Positions 4,162 to 52,938 of a stretch of 64,000 nucleotides of DNA are shown here, piece after piece. Origin of the DNA: Gammaproteobacteria bacterium. Lineage in GTDB: Bacteria > Pseudomonadota > Gammaproteobacteria > JAJPIJ01. The position numbers and the translations under genes are program-made. The notes below the pieces were generated by a model. That model saw only the letters and a list, made by a program, of their open reading frames with translations. It was not told where the DNA came from and made no database searches. The stretch is taken from assembly GCA_021324815.1 (NCBI GenBank), contig JAJPIJ010000051.1, forward strand, positions 2,188 to 66,187, read 5' to 3'. How positions within the stretch are numbered: the first letter of the stretch is position 1; each line of letters starts with the position of its first letter.

Positions 4162-4623
4162 TCAAGTGAAGCGCTCGGTGAATGACTCCTTCTTCCACCC
4201 GTGTCCGAAGCGCCGCAACGCCTGATAAACGGCCATGCGTTGAAAGCTGGTCGCGCCCAGATCGGCCATCGCCTCGTTGGCCAGGATGTTGTCGGCGTCC
4301 CTGCGCGTCAAGGCCGTCTGGCGGCCGTCCTCCAGCGTGACCACCCCTTCATACTGATAGAGAACATCGTTCACCCAGCCGCCAAGTTCGATGCGCGGAT
4401 CGTCGCTGGCCATGAAGATCGACCACGCAAACTGGGGAATCGACGCGAGATCGGACACGTATCCCTGCGGCACCGTGATGATGCCGCCCGCGATGTCGCT
4501 GCGGAACCGCAGCGGGACCTGGAGAACGAACAGGGCCACGCTGAGCGGCTTGCCCTGGGCCCGCAATTTCCATGGCGCCAGTTGCAGCGACACGTCGCCG
4601 TCGATGTCAAAGAAACGGTTCAT
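4162..4623 (-). CDS. DUF1353 family protein (phage/prophage-associated small protein)
   Basis: 153 aa. Motifs FDIDGDVSL and VPQGYVSDLASIP are reminiscent of DUF1353. Assignment is from memory of the family. Confidence 0.45.
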   Translation of the reverse strand: MNRFFDIDGDVSLQLAPWKLRAQGKPLSVALFVLQVPLRFRSDIAGGIITVPQGYVSDLASIPQFAWSIFMASDDPRIELGGWVNDVLYQYEGVVTLEDGRQTALTRRDADNILANEAMADLGATSFQRMAVYQALRRFGHGWKKESFTERFT

Positions 4624-4653
4624 TATTCGCGGCCTTCAACCCGCCCGGACTGC

Positions 4654-5889
4654 TCACTTCTTCCGCTCGGCGCGGGCGATGGCCTTGAGGTCGGCGCGCT
4701 TGAGTTTCTTCGCGGCGCGCTGCTCGCTGCGGTGGCCGCGGCGATCCTCGCGCTTGAACGCCTTCTTCTTCGCCTTGGAGCCGTAGATCTGCTTCCACTT
4801 GCCGTTCTTGAAGATGATCTGGTAGCCGCCGGACAGAATCTGGAACGGCTCCCTCACCTTCTTCATTTGATCGAACTGTACTGATCCCGGCTTGTGGAAG
4901 GCCTCGAAGTACGCCGGGAAGACAAAGTCCGTCATGGGGATGCCCTTCACCGGGAAGCTCAGCGCCTCGACCGGATCGGCGCTTTCGTAGGCATACATCA
5001 GTTTCGGATCGGGGCCGGTGGTCATCATGTTGATGGCCGGGTCGACCAGCATCTCCACCAGCTCGTGCGAGGCCGACACGCTCACCAGATCGTTGTTCTT
5101 GATCGTGGTCTTCACGAACACCTTGGCCTGCGGCAGGCCGTCCGGCGTGAGATCATGGTAGGCGAGCGCGCCGGGCTGATCGGCGTCGTCGAGAAACACC
5201 ATCGCCCAGGCGCCCTTGATGAAGCCGTCGGACTTGACGAGTTTGGCGGGCGTGCCCCACACCGGCGCGACGTAGTCGTCGATGAACGCCTGCATGGCGG
5301 CGATCAGCTTGTCGAAGTTGACGCCCAGTTTGGTCTTCGCCCTGTTGAAGCAGGCGATGGTGGGCACGCCGCCTTGATTGAACGCGCCGCGTACCGGCGG
5401 CTTGCCGGCGGCGTGGCGCGGTCTGGCCGTGCGCCGGCGGGCTGGAGTTCCGGTCGTCATTTCCGCAATCGGAGGGCGGGGCGTCTGCGACGGCTTTGCG
5501 GCGGGCAGCGGCTCAACCTCGATTTCAAGCACGATGAGTTCGGTCGGCGGTACATCTTCAAGTTTGGCGAACAGCGCCTCGAACGCCTCCCGTGTGCCGC
5601 CGATGGTCTCCTGTTCCATGGTCCGGCCGACTACTATGCATCCCCCGACATCCCCCGCGCCGTTGCCTGGATGCAGGTACACGCCTTCGAAACCCGGCAC
5701 GTTCTTAAGATGCGGCAGCGGGCGCTGGAATTTCTGGGAAAAGTCGATCACCAGATCATAGATGCCCGCGGGAATGGCGCCGGCGCCGGTCTTCTTCTCA
5801 AATGTCAGGCATTCGTATTCGCCGTTGACATATAGTTCGCCGATCGCGCCCTGGTCGGTGAATTCCTTGCGTATGAGTTTCAATTCCAT
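4654..5889 (-). CDS. hypothetical protein with N-terminal L,D-transpeptidase(YkuD)-like fold motif and Lys/Arg-rich C-terminal tail
   Basis: Start taken at MELKLIRKEF (ATG 5889), preceded by GAGGGA SD. Motif HPGNGAGDVGGCIVVG resembles the YkuD H...GC(I/V) catalytic signature. C-terminus KAKKKAFKREDRRGHRSEQRAAKKLKR. Confidence 0.45.
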   Translation of the reverse strand: MELKLIRKEFTDQGAIGELYVNGEYECLTFEKKTGAGAIPAGIYDLVIDFSQKFQRPLPHLKNVPGFEGVYLHPGNGAGDVGGCIVVGRTMEQETIGGTREAFEALFAKLEDVPPTELIVLEIEVEPLPAAKPSQTPRPPIAEMTTGTPARRRTARPRHAAGKPPVRGAFNQGGVPTIACFNRAKTKLGVNFDKLIAAMQAFIDDYVAPVWGTPAKLVKSDGFIKGAWAMVFLDDADQPGALAYHDLTPDGLPQAKVFVKTTIKNNDLVSVSASHELVEMLVDPAINMMTTGPDPKLMYAYESADPVEALSFPVKGIPMTDFVFPAYFEAFHKPGSVQFDQMKKVREPFQILSGGYQIIFKNGKWKQIYGSKAKKKAFKREDRRGHRSEQRAAKKLKRADLKAIARAERKK

Positions 5890-5890
5890 G

Positions 5891-5934
5891 TTTTTTCCCT
5901 CGTGCTGGATGGTTTTTTCCCTCGTGCTGGATGG
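5891..5934. repeat. perfect 22-bp tandem duplication (ttttttccctcgtgctggatgg x2) covering the ribosome-binding region of the YkuD-like gene
   Basis: Units 5891-5912 and 5913-5934 are identical. On the minus strand each unit carries GAGGGAAAAAAC immediately 5' of the ATG. Confidence 0.9.
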
Positions 5935-6183
5935 AACGGCCGGCATCAAGAAACGGCTGGACAACAATCGTCACGCCGAAAACACGCGTCAACGGCGCGC
6001 GATTCATGTCACAGATGATGAACGCCCCCCGATGGTATTGGGTCTCTTCCTCACTGAGTCCGGGTTTTTATTCTGAAAGTTAATTTACCCCTGTGACTTC
6101 GAAAAATCATCAACCTTGCGGCAGCGGTAACGCGCGGGTTCGCACTGTTTTCGCGCGTGGGTATCGGGTCGTGAAATATCTTG

Positions 6184-14332: not shown

Positions 14333-14713
14333 TTATTTTTTCAATAACGAGGCCAGGCCGGCGAAGGGCTGAAAAGTCGCGGGCTTCGGAGCGCGCGCAT
14401 CAGCCGTCGCCGCGCCGCCGTAGCGCGCCTGATCGACGTGACGCGCGTGCTCCTGGTCGTGACAATAGAGACAGAGCAATTCCCAGTTGCTGCCGTCGGG
14501 CGGATTGTTGTCGTGGTTGTGATCGCGGTGGTGCACCGTGAGCTCCTGCAGATTCTCGCGCGTGAATTCGCGGCCGCAGCGGCCGCAGACCCATGGATAG
14601 AGCTTGAGCGCCCGTTCCCGATACTCCTGCCCGCGCTGCCCGCGGTTGCGCCGCGCCTCATGGACCATGCGGTCCAGTCTGCCTTGATCGGGACCGTCCT
14701 TCCTTGCCTTCAT
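14333..14713 (-). CDS. yajD: HNH nuclease YajD family protein
   Basis: Motifs YPWVCGRCGREF...LTVHH.DHNHDNNPPDGSNWELLCLYCHD match the E. coli YajD pattern almost residue-for-residue. Confidence 0.8.
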   Translation of the reverse strand: MKARKDGPDQGRLDRMVHEARRNRGQRGQEYRERALKLYPWVCGRCGREFTRENLQELTVHHRDHNHDNNPPDGSNWELLCLYCHDQEHARHVDQARYGGAATADARAPKPATFQPFAGLASLLKK

Positions 14714-14739
14714 CGTCGCGACCGCCTGACGGGGACAGG

Positions 14740-15135
14740 CTAGTGAAACGCCTTTTTCATGCATTGATCGCGGACCTCCGCGGCCGCGCCGGCCAGCTTT
14801 TGTTTCTCCACCGGCAGGGCACGGTAGACGGGATCGCCGCCGTTGTGGGTCACCAGCGCGACATAGTCGTCAAACGTCAGGTCCAGGGTCAGCCTGCCGT
14901 TCAGGCAATTGCAGAATTGCTCGTGGCCGAAGGACTTCAGGCACGCGGCGTGGCGCTCATCCGAGATCTTTTTCAACTCCGCCAGGGTGTCGAGCACCTT
15001 GAAGCCCGGATCGGTCGTTGGCGCGGCAGGTCCCGGCTCCGTTCCGGCGGCTCCGGCCGCGGCAACGGCAAAAGCCAGCGGGAGCATGAACGCGGCGGAG
15101 GTCATGGCGCGCCGGGTCATCACCAGTACAGCCAC
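14740..15135 (-). CDS. secreted hypothetical protein (signal peptide, 4 Cys)
   Basis: N-terminal hydrophobic signal-like segment. 131 aa. Overlaps the upstream gene by 16 nt, so possibly an operon. Confidence 0.4.
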   Translation of the reverse strand: MAVLVMTRRAMTSAAFMLPLAFAVAAAGAAGTEPGPAAPTTDPGFKVLDTLAELKKISDERHAACLKSFGHEQFCNCLNGRLTLDLTFDDYVALVTHNGGDPVYRALPVEKQKLAGAAAEVRDQCMKKAFH

Positions 15136-22031: not shown

Positions 22032-23933
22032 ATGATCGAAAAGTCATACAGAAACGCCCTGCCGGCCGGGCACTCCCTGCTCTGGTACAGCATAGAACGC
22101 GTGCTGGGACAGGGGGCCTTCGGCATCACTTATCTGGCCCGCGACGTGAATCTCGATCGCCGCGTGGCCATCAAGGAATTTTTGCCCGGACAATACGCCA
22201 CGCGCGAGGGCGATCAATCCGTGCGCACGCTGTCGGCCGATCTGCACGTCGAGTTTCATCAGGGACTGGAGCGCTTCCTGAAGGAGGCGCGCACGCTGGC
22301 GAAGTTCGAGCATGCCAACCTGGTGCGCGTGCTGAACGTCTTCGAGGCCAATCACACCGCCTACATGGTGATGACCTACGAGGAGGGACGGACGCTGAAG
22401 GACGTGCTCGCCCGCACCGGCACGCTCAACGAGGGTGATCTGCGGCTGCTGCTGATGCCGCTGCTGGACGGTCTGGAACACATCCACGACGCCAGTTTCA
22501 TTCACCGCGACATCAAGCCCGCCAACATTTTCATCCGCAACGACGGCAGCCCGGTGCTGATCGATTTCGGCTCCGCGCGCCAGGCAGTGCGCGGCCAGTC
22601 GCTCACGCTGACCAATTTCGTCTCGCAGGGCTACGCGGCCATCGAGCAATATTCCAGCCGCAGCGACAAGCAGGGGCCGTGGACGGACATCTACGGCATG
22701 GGCGCCACCCTGTTCCGGGCGATGACCGGCAAGGCGCCGGCGGACGCGGTGGATCGCAGCGAGGCCATCAGCCATGGCAACGCCGACGTCCTGGCCCGCC
22801 TCTCCAGCACCGTCGCGGAAAGATATTCGAAATCTTTCATACAGGCGGTGGAGCACGCCCTCGCCTTTCGCGCCCACGATCGCCCTCAATCGGTGGCCGA
22901 ATGGCGTCCCGAGTTCGACGTGACGCCCGTGACTTTGGTGAAATCCGCCGCCGGCGAATCGACAACGGCGCCGGTCACTCCGCCCGCGGCCGAACCACGA
23001 ACCGTTTTGATGAGCACCGCCGGGGAGGTGAAGACCGTCCTGCAGCCGCGGCCTGATCAAGGCGGTGAAGCGGGCGGCGCGCAGGTGCCGCCGAGCGAGG
23101 CGGAGACGGTGGCCCGGCCGCCTTCCGCCGCCAATACGCCGGTCCCACCCGCGCTGGCGCGGCGCACGCGGCGCCTGCAGCCGCACATGACCTATCGTGT
23201 GGCGTTGCTGATTGCGATTGTGATCGCGCTGGCGGTCCCCGCCTACAAATTTTTCGCCCCCGGCGGCCCTGAGGAGAACGTGCCGGCGGCGACGACGACC
23301 GCCACCACGGCGCCCCCGCCGGTGCTAACCGCCACGCCCCCCGCCGAAGGGACCCGGCCTCCCGTCGCCGCCGTCCCCGACCATCCGGTGCCGCCCCCCG
23401 TCCCCGGCGGCGCGACGATGCCGCCACCGGCGCCGGCGCAATCCCCCGACCAGCAGCGGGCGCAAAAGATTGCCGCCCTGCTCGCCGCGGCGCGTGCCGA
23501 CATCAACGCGCTGCGGCTGACCACGCCCAAGGAGGACAACGCCTTCGACAACTACCTGCAGGTGCTGGCGCTCGACTCCGGCAACGCCGAAGCGCAAAAG
23601 GGGATCACCGCCATCGCCCAGAAGTATGTGGAACTGACCTACCGCGATCTGGACGGCAACAATCCCACCCGCGCGGAGACGTACCTCAAAAAAGCCGAGG
23701 AGATCGCGCCGCAGGCGGATTTCGTCAAGGATGCGCGCAAGACTTTCGACGCCAGGCGCAATCCGCCGCCGCCGGCCTCCGCCGCCGGGGAAAAACCGAA
23801 GGAGGAAACCGAATCACTGAAGGACAAGGCCGCCGATTTCAAGCAGCGCTTCGAAGACTTCCTGAAGTCGCAGCCGCCGGCGCAGAAAACCCGCGCCGAT
23901 GAAATGCGCGAGCGCCTCGGAGGCAGCCATTGA
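22032..23933 (+). CDS. membrane-anchored Hanks-type Ser/Thr protein kinase with Pro-rich linker and periplasmic TPR-like C-terminal domain
   Basis: GQGAFG...VAIKE, HRDIKPAN, DFG motifs. TM segment VALLIAIVIALAVPAY. Confidence 0.85.
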   Translation: MIEKSYRNALPAGHSLLWYSIERVLGQGAFGITYLARDVNLDRRVAIKEFLPGQYATREGDQSVRTLSADLHVEFHQGLERFLKEARTLAKFEHANLVRVLNVFEANHTAYMVMTYEEGRTLKDVLARTGTLNEGDLRLLLMPLLDGLEHIHDASFIHRDIKPANIFIRNDGSPVLIDFGSARQAVRGQSLTLTNFVSQGYAAIEQYSSRSDKQGPWTDIYGMGATLFRAMTGKAPADAVDRSEAISHGNADVLARLSSTVAERYSKSFIQAVEHALAFRAHDRPQSVAEWRPEFDVTPVTLVKSAAGESTTAPVTPPAAEPRTVLMSTAGEVKTVLQPRPDQGGEAGGAQVPPSEAETVARPPSAANTPVPPALARRTRRLQPHMTYRVALLIAIVIALAVPAYKFFAPGGPEENVPAATTTATTAPPPVLTATPPAEGTRPPVAAVPDHPVPPPVPGGATMPPPAPAQSPDQQRAQKIAALLAAARADINALRLTTPKEDNAFDNYLQVLALDSGNAEAQKGITAIAQKYVELTYRDLDGNNPTRAETYLKKAEEIAPQADFVKDARKTFDARRNPPPPASAAGEKPKEETESLKDKAADFKQRFEDFLKSQPPAQKTRADEMRERLGGSH

Positions 23934-37876: not shown

Positions 37877-38392
37877 ATGGGACGCTGGCGGCCGCCCCCA
37901 CCCCAATCCTCCCCCTACATCACCGCGGCGGGTTTTCAGGCCCTGCAGGCGGAACTCAAAGGCTTGTGGGAGCGCCGCGCCGGCGTCACGAAGCATCTGG
38001 CGGCGGCGGCGGCCGAGGGCGACCGCTCGGAGAATGCCGAGTACATCTATCGCAAAAAGGAGTTGCGCGAAATCGACCGGCGCATCCGCTACCTGCAAAA
38101 ACGCCTGCCGGCGCTCAAGGTCATCGCCCAGGCGCCGGCGGACGTGGAGCGCGTGTATTTCGGCGCCTGGGTCATCCTCGAGGCGGAGGACGGCTCGACA
38201 CAGGTTCACCGCATCGTCGGGGCCGATGAGACCGGCGGTGAAAGGAACCATCTGAGCGTGGATTCCCCGCTGGCCCGGCAACTGCTGAAGAAAACGCCAG
38301 GGGAGGAAGTGGTGGTCAAGACCGGGCACACCAGCCGTCGCTACCGGCTTCTTGAGGTCACCTACGAACCGCCGCCCCACGGCCGCCGATAG
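37877..38392 (+). CDS. greB: transcription elongation factor GreB
   Basis: GDRSENAEY acidic finger motif, FGAWV, SPLARQLLKK. Aligns to E. coli GreB by eye. Confidence 0.8.
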   Translation: MGRWRPPPPQSSPYITAAGFQALQAELKGLWERRAGVTKHLAAAAAEGDRSENAEYIYRKKELREIDRRIRYLQKRLPALKVIAQAPADVERVYFGAWVILEAEDGSTQVHRIVGADETGGERNHLSVDSPLARQLLKKTPGEEVVVKTGHTSRRYRLLEVTYEPPPHGRR

Positions 38393-38548
38393 CCCGGCCC
38401 CCGCGCGGTTGTGCAGCGCGGATCATCCGCAGGCGGAAACCGCGGGTTAGGGCTGTGTTCATATATCGTCTATACTGATGGTCCTGGAGACATCTCCGAC
38501 CTGTAATCAATACAACGACGATAAAAGCAAGCCACAAGCCGCTTCACA

Positions 38549-39883
38549 ATGAACGGACTGAGAAATCTGGAAAACAGCACCCTGGCCAAGTATCAGGTCA
38601 TCAAGGAGATTGGCAGGGGCAACATGGGCAAGGTCTATCTCGGCCACGATCCCTTCGTCGACCGGCCGGTGGCGATCAAGGTTGCGGACCAGGATCGGCT
38701 GGCCTCCATGGAGGACGGCGACCTCTACAAAAAACTCTTTTTCAACGAGGCCCAGGCGGCGGGGATGCTGAAGCATCCCAACATCACCGGCATCTACGAC
38801 GCCGGCGCCAATGACGGCGTGTATTACATCGTCATGGAATACGTGCACGGCGGCCAGACGCTGGAGCACTACTGCGATCCCCACAACCTGCTGCCGCTCA
38901 ACGAGGTGATTACCATCACCTACAAGTGCGCCGTGGCGCTGGACTACGCCCACAAGAAGGGGGTCATCCACCGCGACATCAAGCCGCGCAACATCCTCAT
39001 CACCGAGGATCACGACGTCAAAATCACCGACTTCGGCATCGCCGTGCTGCCGGAGGACCTCGGCAGCACCATGGTCAACCACGCCGGCTCGCCGCTGTAC
39101 ATGTCGCCGGAGCAGATCCAGGATCAGGACGTCACGCCGCAGACCGATATTTTCGCGCTGGGGCTGGTGGTCTATGAACTGCTGACCGGCCATCACCCGT
39201 TTCAATCCAACAACATCGAGGCCATACAGCATCTCATCCTGAACGGCGCCATTCCGCCGATCAAAAACTACCGCCCGGACGTCCCCGATGTCCTGGAGCG
39301 CATCGTCCATCGCGCGCTGGCCCGCGAAGCGCGCCTGCGCTACAAGTCCGCCATGGACATGGCCGGCGATTTGAGCCTCGTGTTCGATTTCATCCAGCCG
39401 GCCAGGGAATCGATCACCAAGCAGGAAAAATTCAACGCCGTCCGGGCGCAGGATTTCTTCCGCGATTTCACCGACAACGAAATCTGGGAGTTGATCAACG
39501 CCAGCCAGTGGCTGGACCTGCCCGCCAAGAGCAGCGTCATCGTCGAGGGCGACGTGGACAAGTCCTTCTACGTCATCCTCTCCGGCGTGGTGGAGGTCAT
39601 GAAATCCGGCGTTTACGTGGACACGCTGGTGAGCGGCGACTGCTTCGGCGAGATGGGTTTCGTCTCCGGACGCGAGCGCACCGCCAGCATCACGACGCGC
39701 GAGCCCAGCACCTTGATCAAGGTCCACGCGGCCCAGATTGAGCGCACCTCGCTCAACTGCCAGTTGCGCTTTCACAAGCTGTTCCTGCATACCCTGATCG
39801 CGCGCCTGTCGCGTGCGACCGACCGCATCGTCCGCACCGGCCAGCAGCCGGCGGTTCATGAACCGTCAACCCACGCCTCCTAA
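38549..39883 (+). CDS. Hanks-type Ser/Thr protein kinase fused to C-terminal cyclic-nucleotide-binding (cNMP) domain
   Basis: GRGNMGKV, VAIKV, HRDIKPRN, DFG, SPE motifs. C-terminal FGEMGF...RTASI cNMP-binding signature. Confidence 0.85.
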   Translation: MNGLRNLENSTLAKYQVIKEIGRGNMGKVYLGHDPFVDRPVAIKVADQDRLASMEDGDLYKKLFFNEAQAAGMLKHPNITGIYDAGANDGVYYIVMEYVHGGQTLEHYCDPHNLLPLNEVITITYKCAVALDYAHKKGVIHRDIKPRNILITEDHDVKITDFGIAVLPEDLGSTMVNHAGSPLYMSPEQIQDQDVTPQTDIFALGLVVYELLTGHHPFQSNNIEAIQHLILNGAIPPIKNYRPDVPDVLERIVHRALAREARLRYKSAMDMAGDLSLVFDFIQPARESITKQEKFNAVRAQDFFRDFTDNEIWELINASQWLDLPAKSSVIVEGDVDKSFYVILSGVVEVMKSGVYVDTLVSGDCFGEMGFVSGRERTASITTREPSTLIKVHAAQIERTSLNCQLRFHKLFLHTLIARLSRATDRIVRTGQQPAVHEPSTHAS

Positions 39884-41717
39884 GCGCCCGGCGGCGCCCC
39901 GTCCGGCGGACGTGAAATCCGCACCGGTGGAAGGCATGGTGCCGCCCGTTCAATCGGCGCAACCGGAGGGCAGGCTGACGCAGGAGCGGCTGCTCTCCTG
40001 GCTGCTCGCCGACAAGCTCATCGGCCTGCAACAGGTGGAACAGCTGCGCGTCTCGCAGCCCGGCCGCGGCGAGGACACCCGTCATCCGCTCATCCGCATC
40101 GGCGAACAGGGCTGGGTCAGCGCGACGCATCCCCCCTTCCCCTTGAGCCTCGAACGCCTGACGCGCTGGCTGGCGGAAAAGGTCGGACTGCCCTATGTGC
40201 GCATCGACCCGCTCAAGATCGACGTCGAGGCGGTGACCAAGCTCGTGTCGCAGGCCTACGCGCAACGCTTCCGCTTCCTGCCCATCGAAGTGGACGCGGA
40301 GAACGTCACGGTGGCGACCGCCGAGCCGTACCTGCGCGAGTGGGAGCTGGAGCTCTCGCGCATCCTGCAACGCAAGATCAGGCGCGTCATCGCCAACCCC
40401 AAGGACATCAACCGCTACCTCACGGAGTTTTACGGCGTCAGCCGCTCCATCTTCGGCGCCACGCGGGCCTCCACCGAGGGATCGGTGGTCACCAATTTCG
40501 AGTCGCTGACCGAACTCGGCAAGGTCGGCGAGCCGGACGCCAACGATCAACACATCGTCCATCTGGTCGACTGGCTGCTGCAATTCGCCTTCGAGCAGCG
40601 CGCCAGCGACATCCACGTCGAGCCCAGGCGCGAGCTGTCCCGCATCCGCTTCCGCATCGACGGCATGCTGCACCAGGTGCACGAGCTGCCGACGCCGATC
40701 GTCACCGCCATCACCAGCCGTCTGAAGTCGCTGGGCCGCATGGACGTCGCCGACAAGCGCCGCCCGCAGGACGGCCGCGTCAAGACCAAGACGCCGGCGG
40801 GCAAGGAGGTGGAGATGCGTTTGTCCACCATGCCGACCACCTTCGGCGAGAAACTGGTGCTGCGCATCTTCGACCCGCAGGTGCTGAGCCGCAGCTTCGC
40901 CGAGCTGGGCTTCGGCGATCACGATCTGGCCTGCTGGCAGCGCATGGTGGAAAACCCGCACGGCTTCATCCTCGTCACCGGCCCGACCGGCTCCGGCAAG
41001 ACCACGACGCTCTACTGCGCGCTCAAACAAATTGCGCGGCCGGAATACAACGTGTGCAGCATCGAGGACCCCATCGAGATGGTGGAGCCGCAGTTCAACC
41101 AGATGCAGGTGCAGCCCGCCATCGACGTGGACTTCGCCACTGGCGTGCGCACGCTGCTGCGCCAGGACCCGGACATCATCATGATCGGCGAAATCCGCGA
41201 TCGCGAGACCGCCGACGTCGCCATCCAGGCGGCGCTGACCGGCCACCTCGTGCTCTCCACGCTGCACACCAACGGCGCCCCCTCCGCCATCACGCGGCTC
41301 ATCGACATCGGCGTGCAGCCGTTCCTGATCGGCGCCTCGCTGCTCGGCGTCGTGGCGCAGCGCCTCGTGCGCACGCTCTGCGCCCATTGCAAAAAACCCG
41401 GCAAGCTCGACTGGAGCGGCTGGCAGGCGCTCACCGCCAACATCCACGTCGCCGCCCCCAAGGAGGTATACAAGCCCGTCGGCTGCGACGAATGCCGGCA
41501 CACCGGTTACCGGGGCCGCACCGGTCTCTACGAGATCCTCACCATGAACCGCGAGATGCGCGACCTCATCCGCCCGCAGGTGGACTCGGGCACGCTGCGC
41601 GACGCCGCCATCCGCAGCGGCATGCGCGACCTGCGCCAGAGCGGCGCCGAGAAAGTCGCCGCCGGCGTCACCACGCTGGAGGAGGTCATCTCCGTCATCC
41701 CCCCGCAGGAATCCTGA
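39858..41717 (+). CDS. GspE/PilB/MshE-family secretion ATPase with MshEN-like N-terminal domain and C-terminal tetracysteine zinc site
   Basis: Walker A GPTGSGKTTT, Asp/His boxes, CAHC...CDEC. N-terminal LLSWLLADKLIGLQQVEQL resembles the MshEN motif. The start overlaps the kinase gene by 26 nt. Confidence 0.85.
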   Translation: MNRQPTPPKRPAAPRPADVKSAPVEGMVPPVQSAQPEGRLTQERLLSWLLADKLIGLQQVEQLRVSQPGRGEDTRHPLIRIGEQGWVSATHPPFPLSLERLTRWLAEKVGLPYVRIDPLKIDVEAVTKLVSQAYAQRFRFLPIEVDAENVTVATAEPYLREWELELSRILQRKIRRVIANPKDINRYLTEFYGVSRSIFGATRASTEGSVVTNFESLTELGKVGEPDANDQHIVHLVDWLLQFAFEQRASDIHVEPRRELSRIRFRIDGMLHQVHELPTPIVTAITSRLKSLGRMDVADKRRPQDGRVKTKTPAGKEVEMRLSTMPTTFGEKLVLRIFDPQVLSRSFAELGFGDHDLACWQRMVENPHGFILVTGPTGSGKTTTLYCALKQIARPEYNVCSIEDPIEMVEPQFNQMQVQPAIDVDFATGVRTLLRQDPDIIMIGEIRDRETADVAIQAALTGHLVLSTLHTNGAPSAITRLIDIGVQPFLIGASLLGVVAQRLVRTLCAHCKKPGKLDWSGWQALTANIHVAAPKEVYKPVGCDECRHTGYRGRTGLYEILTMNREMRDLIRPQVDSGTLRDAAIRSGMRDLRQSGAEKVAAGVTTLEEVISVIPPQES

Positions 41718-42282
41718 CAGGCTGCTGCAAAACTACTGCGCTCGGCATGACTTTGTCGCTCGGGGCCCGGAAATCCTCATTTACTGCCGTGTAAACTCCG
41801 GTTTCCTCGCCCCTCGCGCCGCGTACTGCCTGCGCTCGCTACGTTTCGCCCGAATTACCTTGCCTTTTTCAAAGACTCGGGATTCTGATGAACAAATTAG
41901 AAATCCTGACTTTCGTCCGCGTTTTAGTGGAAAGCATTCGAAATCAAAGGAACGGAAGAATCCGGCCTGGCCGTGAACGTCACTGCCGGTGCATCGCAGC
42001 AAGCACTTGCTTTTCTATGGATTCCACATTCTGATCTGTCATACCGACAATTGCCATGTCACCTTGCGAACATCGCACGATGACGCTTTGGTATCCGGCT
42101 TCCGAGAACATTGCCCGTTTCGCTATCGTTTGCCGCGGCATACCCCAATGGGAATCGGGCCATTTTCAGAGCCGACCGCCATGTGGATCGCTCGCGTCTC
42201 ATTGATGATGCAAGGCATCGCGCAGTGGACAGAGGCAACCGCCGGCTGGAATTGAATCCTTTCATCAAAGACCTTCCGAACA

Positions 42283-42552
42283 TCATCGGCAGACAGGGTG
42301 TCTAGCGCCAGAGATTGCGCCTGCTTCGAACTGCCGGGCATATTCACGTCGTAACGTCGTGAAAAGCCACTCCTTTGCCGCCATCTCGCCACGTAACTGG
42401 CGGATCGATCGCCACGCCCGCGCAAATGTCTCCTGCACAAGGTCTTCGGCTTCTGGGCGATTACGGATCAGCCAATAAGCAAAATGATACAGATCGGCCG
42501 AACACGCAAGGACCAGTGCCGCAAACCGCGTTTGCGTGACTCCATGCTTCAT
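42283..42552 (-). pseudogene. ECF sigma factor remnant (sigma70 region 2 only, region 4 missing)
   Basis: 89-aa ORF with region-2 motif DLVQETFARAWRSIRQLRGE, then a stop. No region-4 HTH in any downstream frame. Confidence 0.5.
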
Positions 42553-42734
42553 TAGACCGGGTATCCCGGTCGACTACTACAGCTTAGGGGAACGACGGCG
42601 GGAAGAACGCGATGCCGTTGGGAAACCAACCTTGCCGCCGGTTCGGACCGCCCTACACTACTCGAAGGATCGTCAAGGTCCACCCCCGCCGGATAACCCG
42701 GCCAAGTAGACTATTGCAACACGAATGGGTGCCA

Positions 42735-42763
42735 GGAACGTTTCGCCCGCCTGTTTCGTCTTT
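42735..42763 (+). promoter_or_regulatory. ECF-type promoter candidate (GGAAC-N17-CGTCTT) upstream of ECF sigma gene
   Basis: Classic autoregulated ECF -35 GGAAC / -10 CGTC architecture, about 85 nt before ATG 42848. Confidence 0.4.
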
Positions 42764-42847
42764 ACGTAATAAGAACGCAATGTTGCCTGAAAAAGTCGGG
42801 GGGCGGTCCGATCGCCTGCTCCAGTTCTTCCAATAACAGCCAACTAT

Positions 42848-43378
42848 ATGACATACAAAGAGTTTACTGAACTGGCGTTGTCTTATCGGGAGGACCTTTA
42901 TGCCTATGCAAGACGTCTCTGCCATGCAGAGTGGGATGCCGATGACTTGTTGCAGTCCGCTTATGAACATGCCTTTAGAAGATGGGGGACTCTCCGGCAC
43001 CCCGCGCTTTGCCGCGGGTGGCTTTTTCGAATCGTCAGGAATCTACATATCGATCGGACACGTGCAACCTCCGCCCGCAGCGAATTGCGGTTGGTTAAAC
43101 CCGGCGACTGTATCGCTCCGGAACCCATCGTACCCGCGGAGACCGTCGAACGGCTGACGGTGCATCAACTGGAATGGGCGCTGACACGTCTGCCGCGGGA
43201 ACAAGCCGAGGCCGTGTTGCTCTGTGACCTCTGGGGATTCACATACGAAGAAATCATGACAATCACTGACACTGCCTTGGGCACGGTGCGGTCGCGGATC
43301 TCCCGTGGAAGATTATCGCTATCCCGCCTGTTGGTCGCAGGAACCGAGGTCGTGGGTACCTCAGGTACATTCCTATGA
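42848..43378 (+). CDS. ECF (sigma-70 family) RNA polymerase sigma factor
   Basis: Region 2 (DLLQSAYEHAFRRW) and region 4 (LPREQAEAVLLCDLWGFTYEEIMTITDTALGTVRSRISRGR). 176 aa. Confidence 0.85.
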   Translation: MTYKEFTELALSYREDLYAYARRLCHAEWDADDLLQSAYEHAFRRWGTLRHPALCRGWLFRIVRNLHIDRTRATSARSELRLVKPGDCIAPEPIVPAETVERLTVHQLEWALTRLPREQAEAVLLCDLWGFTYEEIMTITDTALGTVRSRISRGRLSLSRLLVAGTEVVGTSGTFL

Positions 43379-44106
43379 ACTGCAATAAGCACGTCGATAC
43401 CATCTCAGCGTACGTGGATGGCGAAGTCACGCCGGAAGAACGAGTAGCAATGGAACGACATTTCGCAAGCTGCTCCGAATGTTCCCGACGCCTCGCCAGC
43501 TACCGAAGTCTCAAGCATATCGTCGGTCGCCTGCAGGGACGGGTATCTCTTCCTGAGCCCGTCGATGCCAGGATTGGAGGGTTGCGCTTTCGTTTTGGCG
43601 AACAACAATGGTCCAAATGGATACAATGGTTGACGGGCGCCCTTGCAGCCACCGCAGCGGTTTTGGCGGTTTACCTCACTTTCTGGGTGAAAGCGTCGCC
43701 GGAACGTAATACATCCCTCGTTCATGAGCTGGTAGCAGATCATGTTCGCTTTGGGCAGTCCACCATGGCGACGGAGGTTGCATCGCAGGATCCGTCGGTG
43801 GTGTCGCGCTTTTTTGCCAACCGCCTGGATTTTGACCCGTATGTCCCCATCTTGGCCGGCGCTGATCTTATCGGAGGTCGGGTTTGTACGATCGCGGGCA
43901 GCAAGTCTCAACTGCTTTTCTACCGCTTGGGGGATCGCAAGCTGTCGCTGTACGTCATGAACCAGCCCGTCGATGCAGTCTCCCAATGCCGCCAGGTCGG
44001 CCAGCACCATGTGTGCGGCCGGCGCCATGGCCCGCTCTCGCTGGTGTTGGTCGGCGACGAATCTGACAGCGCTTTGGAAGAGCTTCTCAAACGCGCTGCT
44101 TTGTGA
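43375..44106 (+). CDS. zf-HC2 anti-sigma factor with TM helix and periplasmic domain
   Basis: HFASCSECSRR zinc-finger motif, TM segment LTGALAATAAVLAVYLTFWV. The start overlaps the sigma stop (ATGA). Confidence 0.7.
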   Translation: MNCNKHVDTISAYVDGEVTPEERVAMERHFASCSECSRRLASYRSLKHIVGRLQGRVSLPEPVDARIGGLRFRFGEQQWSKWIQWLTGALAATAAVLAVYLTFWVKASPERNTSLVHELVADHVRFGQSTMATEVASQDPSVVSRFFANRLDFDPYVPILAGADLIGGRVCTIAGSKSQLLFYRLGDRKLSLYVMNQPVDAVSQCRQVGQHHVCGRRHGPLSLVLVGDESDSALEELLKRAAL

Positions 44107-50760: not shown

Positions 50761-52938
50761 CTAAATCCACAAGCCGGCCGCCGCCGCGGGCGGGGAAGTC
50801 AGCCAGGTTCGCTCGAACTCTTCGCTCGTCACCGGTTTCCCGAAAAGATATCCCTGAGCCTCATTACATTTTCTGAGTCGAAGAAAAACGACTTGAGCCT
50901 CGGTCTCGACACCTTCGGCGATGACGCGCATGCCAAGCGCATGTCCTATCCGCAATATCGTGTCGCAGATTACCTCCGCGTTATGGTCGTGTCCAATACC
51001 GTCTACAAATGACTTGTCGATCTTGATCGCATCAACCATGAAACGTTGCAAGTAGTTCAGCGACGAATAGCCGGTGCCGAAATCATCTATGGACACATGC
51101 ACGCCGAGTTTGCGCAGTTCGGCAAGTACTTGCGTGGAATGTTCGACGTCACGCATTGTTGTCGTTTCGGTAATCTCCAATTCGAGTCGAACGGTCGGTA
51201 TGCCGGACTCACCCGCACCGCGGACGGTCGTTGTTTCGGTTACTTCCAATTCAAGTCGATCTGCCGGCATGGCAGAGCCATGCACGACCCGTTTGATCCG
51301 CCGTACCAGGTCTGGGTCGGAAAATTCCTGTCCCGATACGTTGATTGCGAGACGTGGCGACCAACCATAACGCGTGTGCCACCTTTGGATATGCTCACCG
51401 GCCGCCCGCAGGACGAAATCGCCAATCTGTCCCATCAATCCGGTGGATTCCGCAAGCGGAATGAATTCGGCTGGATTCACCAAACCCCGGGTCGGATGCT
51501 GCCAGCGTAGCAGGACTTCGGCGCCGGCCAGCACCGCCCCATCATGCGGCGGCAAGAGCTTGACCTTGGGCTGAAAGACCACGAAAAACTCGCGGCGCAA
51601 AATCGCCTGTTCAAGATCATGGGTCAACTGCTGGCGCGCGCGCATGGCCAATGCGAACTGTGGCGAATAGAACTGATATTTGCAGGTGGTTGCCTCGTAG
51701 GTCTGTACTAATGCCAGTTCCGCCTGCGACAGCAGATCCTCGCCCACAAATACGTTTCCATCCGATTGCGCGATGCCCACTCGCACGGGTAGTGACACCT
51801 CGACATCATCTGCCACTTTGATGGGATGAGAAACGGCATTCAGCAATTTCTCCGCGAGCGCCGCCGTGACATGCGGATCGCCCATTCCGCATCGAACTAT
51901 GACGAATCGATCGGCGCCGACATGCGCCAGAAAGTCGTCGGGGGATGCGGCATATTGCAGACATCGCGCGAGTTCGTGAAGCAAACGATCCGCCGCGGCA
52001 TGACCATAGGTCGCGTTCAGCGCGCGAAAGCGAAGCACGTTGAAAAGCAGCACGGTCACTCCATGCCCCATGCCGCATCTACGCTTCAGGAACTCCAGCA
52101 ACGCCGCCCGGTTCGGCAAACCGGTAATGAGGTCATGGTGCGTCAGGAAAAACGCCTGCTCCACCGCCATCTCTTTATCACGGCGCCTGCTGTCGGCCAC
52201 CCTGTTGAGCATGGTGTTGTGTGCGTGGATCAAGTCGCCCATCTCGTCGCCGCGCCTCATCGACAATGTGAACGATGCGGCATCGTCTGGTGTTGCCGCG
52301 GCCTTGAGTGCGCTTTCGCGCAGTCGCAGCAGCGGGCGCAGCAGCCATCGATCCAGCACCAGCATTGTCCCGACGGTCACCACCAGCACGATGATTGCGA
52401 TCAAACCGGCGATGCGCAATAAGTAGGCATGCAATCGCTGCGGCAGGTCGCCAACATCAACGCGGGCGGCCACAGTCACATCCGGAATCAGATCGCTGCG
52501 CCAGACCGCAGTCAGAGTTCGCCCCCCTGTCTCCGTAGAAACGAGTTGTCGCTTCAGTGTCGCGCCCGGCACCAGGTCGGTGGCAGGAACCTCGCCGGCG
52601 CTGGCCAGTACCGCGCCAGACGGGCCGCGGATCGCCACCCCGCGCAACCCCTCCTGACCGACGATTGCATCAAGATCCGGAAGGATCCTGCGTCTCCGAG
52701 CGTCGGCGAGCACAAATTCAACCAGGCTCTGGGTCCTCTCGGCCAGTCGCATCAGCTCCCCGCGCTCAAAATACCTGGCTGATGGCACTATAATGACACT
52801 TTCAACGCCAAGGATAAGTCCAAACACGGCAAGCGTGATCTTCCAGCAAAGGCGGCAACTCCATAGCGGGGAAAGTCCAGCCACCGCCGGGACCTTATGC
52901 TGGATGCTCTGCTGTTCCATTTTAAATGTGTCATCCAT
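50761..52938 (-). CDS. membrane sensor diguanylate cyclase/phosphodiesterase (TM-periplasmic-TM-HAMP-GGDEF-EAL)
   Basis: GGDEF region (LPNRAALLEF..., RCGMGD variant), EAL region (EVLLRWQHP, DDFGTGYSSLNYL). Two N-terminal TM helices. Confidence 0.85.
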   Translation of the reverse strand: MDDTFKMEQQSIQHKVPAVAGLSPLWSCRLCWKITLAVFGLILGVESVIIVPSARYFERGELMRLAERTQSLVEFVLADARRRRILPDLDAIVGQEGLRGVAIRGPSGAVLASAGEVPATDLVPGATLKRQLVSTETGGRTLTAVWRSDLIPDVTVAARVDVGDLPQRLHAYLLRIAGLIAIIVLVVTVGTMLVLDRWLLRPLLRLRESALKAAATPDDAASFTLSMRRGDEMGDLIHAHNTMLNRVADSRRRDKEMAVEQAFFLTHHDLITGLPNRAALLEFLKRRCGMGHGVTVLLFNVLRFRALNATYGHAAADRLLHELARCLQYAASPDDFLAHVGADRFVIVRCGMGDPHVTAALAEKLLNAVSHPIKVADDVEVSLPVRVGIAQSDGNVFVGEDLLSQAELALVQTYEATTCKYQFYSPQFALAMRARQQLTHDLEQAILRREFFVVFQPKVKLLPPHDGAVLAGAEVLLRWQHPTRGLVNPAEFIPLAESTGLMGQIGDFVLRAAGEHIQRWHTRYGWSPRLAINVSGQEFSDPDLVRRIKRVVHGSAMPADRLELEVTETTTVRGAGESGIPTVRLELEITETTTMRDVEHSTQVLAELRKLGVHVSIDDFGTGYSSLNYLQRFMVDAIKIDKSFVDGIGHDHNAEVICDTILRIGHALGMRVIAEGVETEAQVVFLRLRKCNEAQGYLFGKPVTSEEFERTWLTSPPAAAAGLWI
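51163..51258. repeat. in-frame 69-bp tandem duplication inside the EAL domain coding region
   Basis: Cores gtttcggtaatctccaattcgagtcga (51163-51189) and gtttcggttacttccaattcaagtcga (51232-51258). Encodes RLELEVTETTTVR / RLELEITETTTMR. Confidence 0.75.

Follow-up and report, generated by a model that had tools for sequence, protein, structure and literature searches.

A Hanks-type kinase with a cyclic-nucleotide-binding domain encoded in tandem with a TfpB-family pilus extension ATPase in an uncultured gammaproteobacterium

Why does a gene for a Ser/Thr kinase carrying a cyclic-nucleotide-binding (CNB) domain run into the gene for a pilus-class motor ATPase, in DNA where no other pilus or secretion genes were found? 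The question is raised by a stretch of 64,000 nucleotides (nt) of contig JAJPIJ010000051.1, from an uncultured gammaproteobacterium, that we have analysed at full length and refer to as the window. The initial annotation saw in the two genes a possible two-input module, with cyclic AMP or cyclic GMP (cAMP, cGMP) acting on the kinase and cyclic di-GMP (c-di-GMP) on the ATPase, and did not recognize the pairing as a described system. We assign the ATPase to the TfpB family of type IVa pilus extension ATPases. What appears to be new is a Hanks kinase in one operon with such a motor: no description of a kinase paired with TfpB, PilB or GspE was found in the full-text literature that we searched, nor in a 2024 review of PilB regulators.

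The two genes and their junction are laid out as follows.

38549..39883, + strand: Hanks-type Ser/Thr kinase with a C-terminal CNB domain, predicted to be soluble; 444 aa (open reading frame translation, Pfam)
39858..41717, + strand: TfpB-family type IVa pilus extension ATPase; 619 aa (NCBIfam NF053534, Pfam MshEN and T2SSE)
39858..39883, + strand: overlap of the kinase 3' end and the ATPase 5' end, 26 nt (direct reading of the sequence)
38393..38548, + strand: gap of 156 nt between greA (37877-38392) and the kinase gene, presumed promoter region of the pair
39858..39935, + strand: Pro/Ala-rich N-terminal extension of the ATPase, residues 1-26 (lineage-specific)

The kinase stop codon (TAA, 39881-39883) falls downstream of the ATPase ATG (39858), so that the genes overlap by 26 nt at the coordinates given in the initial annotation. 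The overlap suggests that translation of kinase and ATPase may be coupled. An alternative start at M27 (ATG 39936) would leave no overlap and a 52-nt gap instead. We have considered M27 as the true start and disfavour it: it aligns with most N-termini of the family and reproduces the 52-nt gap of related locus L004, but the closest relative, L089 (kinase 94% and ATPase 90% identical to those of the window), lacks the codon. L089 keeps the upstream ATG and differs by two in-frame indels of +3 nt and -36 nt, both 3' of the kinase stop, with the M27 codon falling inside the 36-nt deletion. Because L089 retains the ATG, loses M27 and carries both indels in frame, the upstream ATG at 39858, and the overlap with it, is the better-supported start. 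The in-frame indels near the overlap also show the extended ATPase N-terminus to be, in all probability, translated. Apart from the window, only its closest relatives P0122 and L089 have the Pro/Ala-rich extension; other members of the family are without it. A scan of 38300-42900 for promoters and terminators returned no match to the sigma-70 consensus and no terminator 3' of the pair.

Is the kinase likely to be active? Its domains and motifs are located as listed below.

38591..39292, + strand: kinase catalytic domain, residues 15-248 (Pfam Pkinase, E 1.3e-53)
38612-38635, + strand: G-loop GRGNMG
38669-38683, + strand: VAIK motif
38969-38992, + strand: HRDIKPRN motif
39029-39037, + strand: DFG motif
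39089-39112, + strand: SPLYMSPE motif
39518..39745, + strand: CNB domain, residues 324-399 (Pfam cNMP_binding, E 2.8e-14)
39644-39688, + strand: phosphate-binding cassette FGEMGFVSGRERTAS, cassette residues invariant

The Pkinase match scores 182 bits against a cut-off of 31.7, and the Pkinase plus cNMP_binding architecture is common to more than 120 homologues at 51% identity or above. We aligned 30 kinase sequences, 50-87% identical (alignment A1). All Hanks motifs (G-loop, VAIK lysine, alpha-C glutamate, HRD, catalytic-loop asparagine, DFG and an APE-like motif) are present and invariant or nearly so across the 30 homologues; K44, E67, H141-R142-D143, K145, N148, D161-F162, S181-P182, P187-E188 and R264 are strictly invariant. 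The CNB cassette, of the FGE...R(S/T)A type, is likewise intact, with F366, G367, E368, R377 and A379 invariant in A1. The best solved relatives of this domain are Plasmodium PKG CNB-D and PKA RI, and FGEMGFVSGRERTAS aligns to PKG FGERALLYDEPRTAS. AlphaFold2 models both domains of the full kinase with confidence (predicted local distance difference test, pLDDT, 85), joined by a disordered linker (below 50); the predicted TM-score (pTM) is 0.64. The initial annotation called the kinase apparently active and fused to a CNB domain, and both statements bear up on alignment, with the ATP-binding residues in place (K44 invariant, G-loop found). Judged by these residues, the protein is an apparently active kinase whose cAMP/cGMP site looks functional. 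At a related locus (L088:8001-10713), a kinase-only gene (332 aa) and a gene for a stand-alone CNB protein (121 aa) come after an unpaired kinase-CNB gene; the two look like a split duplicate of the fusion.

Which motor does the second gene encode? The catalytic core of the ATPase has the following features.

40542..41690, + strand: T2SSE ATPase core, residues 229-611 (Pfam, E 4.4e-131)
40980-41006, + strand: Walker A, GPTGSGKTT, residues 375-383
41064-41078, + strand: Asp box, EDPIE, residues 403-407
41166-41201, + strand: Walker B, DPDIIMIGEIRD, residues 437-448
41247-41273, + strand: His box, LVLSTLHTN, residues 464-472
41379-41393, + strand: Zn-cysteines CAHC, residues 508-511
41484-41495, + strand: Zn-cysteines CDEC, residues 543-546

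The catalytic boxes and the tetracysteine Zn site are invariant in the ATPase alignment (A2). On the TfpB equivalog model NF053534 the protein scores 867.4 bits, above the cut-off of 850, with residues 40-615 covering model positions 7-583 of 584; on the PilB model TIGR02538 (516.8, cut-off 675.65) and the GspE model TIGR02533 (514.7, cut-off 630.25) it stays below threshold. Five representatives of other subclades behave in the same way (865-928 bits on the TfpB model, all below the PilB and GspE cut-offs). Among proteins of solved structure, PilB proteins are the best sequence matches. By these scores the window ATPase is a TfpB-family protein, distinct from canonical PilB and GspE. The initial annotation had described it as an orphan GspE/MshE-type ATPase: the motor class (T2SSE) is right, and the family can now be named as TfpB, the models of GspE and PilB having failed. 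All the Pfam families looked for in following up that annotation (Pkinase, cNMP_binding, MshEN and T2SSE) gave matches. The isolation that it had remarked on is also real. None of the approximately 50 open reading frames scanned over the 64-kb window encodes a component of a type II secretion system or a type IV pilus (no T2SSF, peptidase A24 or pilin), and synteny with pilC/pilD is absent both among these reading frames and in the flanks of related loci. In Acinetobacter baylyi, TfpB is a homologue of PilB that is distinct in phylogeny and lacks the pilB-pilC synteny (Ellison et al. 2021, PMC8213720); efficient extension of type IVa pili depends on it as well as on PilB, and it may act at the initiation step (PMC8213720). 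Because the TfpB family is defined in part by its location away from pilC, the orphan position of the window ATPase is a family trait and not an anomaly. The annotation can be corrected accordingly: the present "GspE/PulE family" genes of uncultured Gammaproteobacteria are TfpB orthologues.

How consistently are kinase and ATPase genes found together? The ATPase-anchored sample comprises 57 loci, found by scanning metagenomes with the family-specific N-domain, that have 1.5 kb or more of sequence upstream. Directly upstream of tfpB lies the kinase in eight of them; 20 have a divergent dsbC there, 12 an acylphosphatase on the same strand and 17 some other gene. Anchoring on the kinase instead, we find TfpB downstream in P0001, P0044, P0083, P0035 and P0034, and unpaired kinases in P0095, P0110 and P0064, all from one sequence subgroup. 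The order kinase-then-ATPase on the same strand recurs with kinases 38-94% identical to that of the window and gene-call spacings from -26 to +52 nt (the 26-nt overlap of the window, a 20-nt overlap in L171, -13 nt in L136 and gaps of 16-52 nt in the others); L136 marks the 38% limit to which pairing is kept. More distant full-length kinase-CNB homologues (31-47% identity) are unpaired in 17 of 17 cases among the matches listed. These 17 come from a scan of a genome collection with a generic kinase pattern that missed close relatives, and serve as a comparison set only. Their hosts are metagenome-assembled genomes (MAGs), including Woeseiaceae, Steroidobacteraceae, Usitatibacter, Gallionellaceae and Nitrospirae, and several of the genes follow ribH-nusB-thiL. 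Conservation of the two genes as neighbours was one test that the initial annotation had set beforehand, and the outcome is divided: they are neighbours within one clade, at eight of the 57 TfpB loci, and the distant kinase-CNB homologues stand apart from tfpB.

The commonest surrounding of tfpB, in about one third of the sampled loci, is dsbC | tfpB | xerD-rplS-trmD-rimM-rpsP, and the kinase gene, when present, sits between dsbC and tfpB. In L004, L087, L090-L115, L169 and L171 the series reads DUF3108, dsbC (divergent) | tfpB | xerD, rplS, trmD, rimM, rpsP. This conserved housekeeping context suggests that tfpB is a stable core gene and not an accessory island gene. The full dsbC | kinase-tfpB | xerD order is found in L004, L087, L113, L118, L119, L123, L136, L138, L141, L169 and L171. 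In the window and in L089 the order is greA | kinase-tfpB; here the pair has left the dsbC/xerD site, which makes at least two genomic contexts for it. Two closed or near-closed genomes also carry the pair, on a 5.7-Mb contig of ERZ26867466 and on contig_1 (6.3 Mb) of ERZ26694734. On neighbour-joining, the kinase-linked ATPases form essentially one clade, in which the kinase-less L090 and L091 are nested, and the paired kinases form one clade, in which the unpaired L085 and L088 are nested. The two trees have similar internal groupings and place the same loci together. We conclude from this comparison of genomes that the pairing is real, old, tight and restricted to one clade, and we count its conservation as good evidence for a two-gene operon but as no more than moderate evidence for a direct functional link.

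Some of the related loci have features of their own. The acylphosphatase gene, encoding about 91 aa (Pfam PF00708, E 3e-25; for example L134:437-712), lies directly upstream of tfpB on the same strand in its 12 of 57 loci. It is also upstream in L120, L126, L128, L140, L144-L146, L149-L151, L153, L154, L157, L158 and L160. The acylphosphatase-linked ATPases form their own subclade, with the top score on the TfpB model (928 bits), and the acylphosphatase may be an alternative partner gene for the TfpB motor. In a 6.3-Mb genome (L169:6348-8942), insertion of a DDE transposase has cut the kinase-adjacent tfpB to 454 aa and left the kinase intact. At L170:9229-11094 (- strand), a PP2C phosphatase fused to an FGE-sulfatase domain is encoded 3 kb from an unpaired kinase-CNB gene. 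No PP2C gene was seen near the paired kinases.

What could the kinase be doing beside TfpB? In the reading that we prefer, its CNB domain would sense cAMP or cGMP, binding of the cyclic nucleotide would turn the kinase on or off, and the kinase would then phosphorylate TfpB or a partner of TfpB. TfpB, in turn, would drive a type IVa pilus machine encoded elsewhere as a second PilB-like extension motor, and pilus extension would thereby be tied post-translationally, through a fast input, to the level of the cyclic nucleotide. The gene structure, domain identities, catalytic competence, TfpB membership, absence of a c-di-GMP motif and conservation pattern that underlie this proposal are read from the sequences; ligand binding, the identity of the ligand, transfer of phosphate by the kinase to TfpB and the sense of the resulting effect we infer. 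We consider the case for a cyclic-nucleotide-gated kinase modulating TfpB, or a docking partner of TfpB, to be evenly balanced.

Several observations weigh against this proposal. In the ATPase-anchored sample 49 of the 57 TfpB loci have no adjacent kinase, and because most TfpB loci do without it, the kinase must be regarded as accessory to TfpB. Unlinked members occur within the paired clades (ATPases L090 and L091; kinases L085, L088 and L170). The pairing looks like the product of one ancestral insertion, vertical inheritance and one co-relocation rather than of repeated independent recruitment. The AlphaFold2 kinase model, with its pTM of 0.64, leaves the arrangement of the two domains unfixed. 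The window holds a second Hanks kinase gene (22032-23933), so kinases are not rare in this genome. Finally, comparing the Ser and Thr residues specific to kinase-linked ATPases brought out no plausible acceptor, T218 and T328 alone emerging. We have rejected both as phospho-acceptors: they track the clade and not the presence of the kinase, and T218 is shared by the kinase-less L090. A T-P site in the lineage-specific N-terminal extension might serve as acceptor, which is speculation.

The main competing explanation is that the adjacency is simply inherited gene order: a kinase inserted once between dsbC and tfpB and carried along since as a long-lived passenger, acting on unrelated substrates, with TfpB working as it does where there is no kinase. 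The restriction of the pairing to essentially one clade and the 49 kinase-less loci fit this account, as does the very stable housekeeping neighbourhood (dsbC / xerD-rplS-trmD-rimM-rpsP), in which passengers could persist; moreover, related kinase-CNB genes adjoin unrelated genes such as ribH-nusB-thiL. Three observations speak against it: the pair stayed joined when it moved from the dsbC/xerD site to greA (the window and L089), the genes still overlap or lie very close together at kinase identities as low as 38% (-13 nt in L136), and the kinase and ATPase trees are congruent. We regard inherited order as a serious possibility that nonetheless falls well short of an even chance.

Does the ATPase contribute a second input of its own? 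The relevant part of its N-terminus comprises three elements.

39975..40457, + strand: N-domain of GSPII/MshEN fold, approximately residues 40-200 (AlphaFold2, Foldseek)
39987-40058, + strand: degenerate motif-1 site, residues 44-67, RLLSWLLADKLIGLQQVEQLRVSQ (motif scan)
40080-40115, + strand: RHPLIRIGEQGW, a family-specific element in place of motif 2, residues 75-86

The Pfam MshEN model matches residues 110-196 (E 2.2e-18), which is the C-terminal subdomain of the N-domain. AlphaFold2 predicts the N-domain with pLDDT 86 and pTM 0.80, and the top Foldseek matches of the model are PilF GSPII-B, MshE 5HTL, Xanthomonas citri PilB-N and XpsE-N (E 4e-8 to 5e-7, TM 0.5-0.68). The predicted fold is thus GSPII/MshEN, a four-helix N-subdomain followed by an alpha/beta C-subdomain. 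The MshEN ligand-binding motif consists of two tandem 24-residue units, RLGxx(L/V/I)(L/V/I)xxG(L/V/I)(L/V/I)xxxxLxxxLxxQ, separated by a 5-residue spacer (Wang et al. 2016, PMC5013675), and the ligand is contacted by R1-L2-G3, L17, L21 and Q24, the backbone of G3 giving polar bonds (PMC5013675). XpsE, which has the same GSPII fold, does not bind c-di-GMP (PMC5013675).

The peptide LLSWLLADKLIGLQQVEQL, on which the suggestion of c-di-GMP binding had been based, is present at residues 45-63 of the ATPase. It lies in the helix RLLSWLLADKLIGLQQVEQLRVSQ, which agrees with the relaxed motif at 8 of 11 constrained positions; R1, L2 and Q24 are present and both glycines are missing. In motif 1, the ATPase family as a whole does not conserve R1 and Q24, and its residue at position 3 is Leu, Val or Ile in every case, never Gly. 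Motif 2 opens with a His-Pro that hardly varies and is broken by an insertion of nine residues; its position 3 is Pro in 38 of 44 sequences and otherwise Ala or Val, again never Gly. The published relaxed form of the motif is absent from all 120 database homologues of the ATPase and from all 44 locus-derived ones (shuffled sequences gave one match in 8800). Motif 2 of Geobacter PilB, taken as a positive control, matches the strict as well as the relaxed form. The regular expression is imperfect, in that it misses the second motif of PilF GSPII-B, a known binder, where the Gly is nevertheless kept. In place of motif 2 the family has an element (R)HPL..(I/L)A(E/D)QGW; in A2 its P77 is invariant and its H76 conserved to 90% or more. 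A conserved loop, S-A-T-x-P-x-Y-P-L-T, comes after it. The conservation of (R)HP...QGW points to some function other than c-di-GMP binding.

The two-input module, in which the kinase senses cAMP or cGMP and the ATPase N-domain binds c-di-GMP as MshE does, can still draw on the predicted fold, with the c-di-GMP-bound PilF GSPII-B and MshE 5HTL among its top matches, on R1, L2 and Q24 of the window helix, on the shortcomings of the published expression with PilF GSPII-B, and on a HAMP-GGDEF-EAL gene 9 kb away. Yet the relaxed motif is missing from both sets of homologues, the ligand-contacting Gly is found at position 3 of neither motif, R1 and Q24 vary in motif 1, motif 2 is split by the insertion, and the same fold occurs in the non-binder XpsE and in X. 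citri PilB-N, which binds a protein, PilZ. A two-input module therefore seems to us very improbable. Of the earlier description of the N-domain, the MshEN likeness survives, in the Pfam match and the predicted fold, and the c-di-GMP input does not. Canonical c-di-GMP binding by this domain is unlikely on the motif evidence, and its most likely role is that of a surface for regulation or protein interaction, not that of a c-di-GMP receptor. The MshEN annotation of these TfpB N-domains should accordingly not be counted as marking a c-di-GMP receptor. The HAMP-GGDEF-EAL protein (725 aa; 50761-52938, - strand) lies 9 kb downstream of the pair; with its gene in the window, the organism appears to signal by c-di-GMP, although the binding motif is missing from its TfpB.

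Could the ATPase have been diverted from pili altogether? It might power a type II secretion system or another non-pilus process, or act as a free-standing regulator, or the pair might be a kinase-based anti-phage system. The ATPase is about equally similar to GspE and PilB, no pilus genes are nearby, and the kinase domain matches the PADLOC models PD-T4-6 and mad6. Against repurposing, TfpB is the only equivalog model that the ATPase passes, and its family is highly conserved, at 63-73% identity over many lineages. As for defence, the PADLOC matches (up to 263 bits) are confined to kinase residues 10-295, the generic kinase domain, for which the generic PknB model gives 287 bits, below its cut-off; the ATPase has no PADLOC match, and the usual neighbourhood consists of core housekeeping genes and not of a defence island. 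We do not favour the defence-system reading (PD-T4-6/MADS), the similarity behind it being probably that of kinase domains in general, and repurposing and defence taken together strike us as very improbable.

We return to the cyclic-nucleotide-gated kinase as a modulator of TfpB. A bolder form of this proposal makes the protein a bacterial counterpart of PKA and PKG with an identifiable client: a cAMP/cGMP-gated kinase that phosphorylates TfpB or its docking partner directly and so licenses or blocks the start of extension. This we put forward tentatively, and think it rather doubtful. Cyclic AMP is known to control type IV pili transcriptionally, through Vfr and Pil-Chp. Such control is reviewed in PMC11656802, the 2024 review of PilB regulation, which lists second messengers, PilZ/FimX and small protein inhibitors and no Ser/Thr kinase. 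Transcriptional cAMP control of pili is thus already known, as are TfpB and the kinase-CNB fusion architecture, itself uncharacterised. If the proposal is true, the operon would hold a Ser/Thr-phosphorylation switch, the first such on a pilus extension ATPase, and would add a post-translational branch to the cAMP-pilus axis; it would also provide a candidate substrate for the many bacterial kinase-CNB fusions that are uncharacterised. Standing questions are how the extension motors of type IV pili are switched on and why some bacteria need a second one, TfpB, and the TfpB-kinase operon offers a concrete, testable hypothesis for direct control of a motor by a signal.

In the wider surroundings, hrcA-grpE-dnaK-dnaJ (minus strand), then nadK, recN and greA lie upstream of the pair; downstream are an extracytoplasmic function (ECF) sigma/anti-sigma pair and a resistance-nodulation-division (RND) efflux operon. 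The NCBI MAG contig JBAIHU010000186.1 (GCA_037025245.1) matches the window. At about 42 kb the G+C content drops from 62-70% to 56-60% (window 41802-64000), and the homology of L089 stops at 41801, 84 nt past the ATPase stop, after which L089 runs into gcvP and gcvT. Because G+C falls and L089 homology ends here, the right-hand third of the window is a variable or inserted region, or possibly the result of a join made in MAG assembly. The 1.1-kb gap after the ATPase gene contains an 89-aa reading frame (42283-42552, - strand) with Sigma70 region 2 only (E 4e-13), probably a truncated ECF sigma gene; the intact sigma/anti-sigma pair is at 42848-44106 (+ strand). In the second Hanks-type kinase (22032-23933, + strand; 633 aa, Pkinase E 3e-41), no Pfam family matches the long C-terminal region. 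The window yielded no gene for an FHA or PP2C protein. Genes of the DUF1353 and DUF5675 families and an HNH endonuclease gene (4162-5967 and 14333-14764, both - strand) are possibly phage-derived remnants.

How does the locus compare with systems that are better understood? With the MshEN domains of MshE, PilF GSPII-B and PilB, the window N-domain shares its predicted fold; it differs in that the tandem 24-residue motifs are not conserved, both of them having another residue in place of the ligand-contacting Gly across the family of the window ATPase. XpsE-N and X. citri PilB-N, the latter with PilZ, are GSPII-fold N-domains that do not themselves bind c-di-GMP and serve as protein-docking surfaces, but the window N-domain is only 14-19% identical to them. 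The kinase resembles eukaryotic PKG and PKA in joining CNB and Hanks kinase domains and in its RTA-type cassette, as in PKG. Unlike them, it has a single CNB domain placed C-terminal to the kinase, whereas in PKG and PKA these domains precede the kinase or reside on a separate subunit, and no inhibitory pseudosubstrate was identified in it. A. baylyi TfpB and the window ATPase are both PilB-like assembly ATPases that combine a GSPII N-domain with a tetracysteine site and are encoded away from pilC/pilD. The window operon adds the CNB-domain Hanks kinase, none being mentioned for A. baylyi TfpB, and its ATPase has the lineage-specific Pro/Ala-rich N-terminal extension; the host is an uncultured gammaproteobacterium, in which the role of TfpB is a predicted one. 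In Pseudomonas aeruginosa, threonine phosphorylation by the PpkA-Fha1 system controls the type VI secretion system. There, as here, a Hanks kinase is encoded with an envelope nanomachine, and the post-translational gating that PpkA exerts is what we propose for the window kinase; PpkA, however, is a membrane kinase that works with an FHA-domain adaptor and a cognate PP2C, whereas the window kinase is predicted to be soluble and is putatively gated by a cyclic nucleotide.

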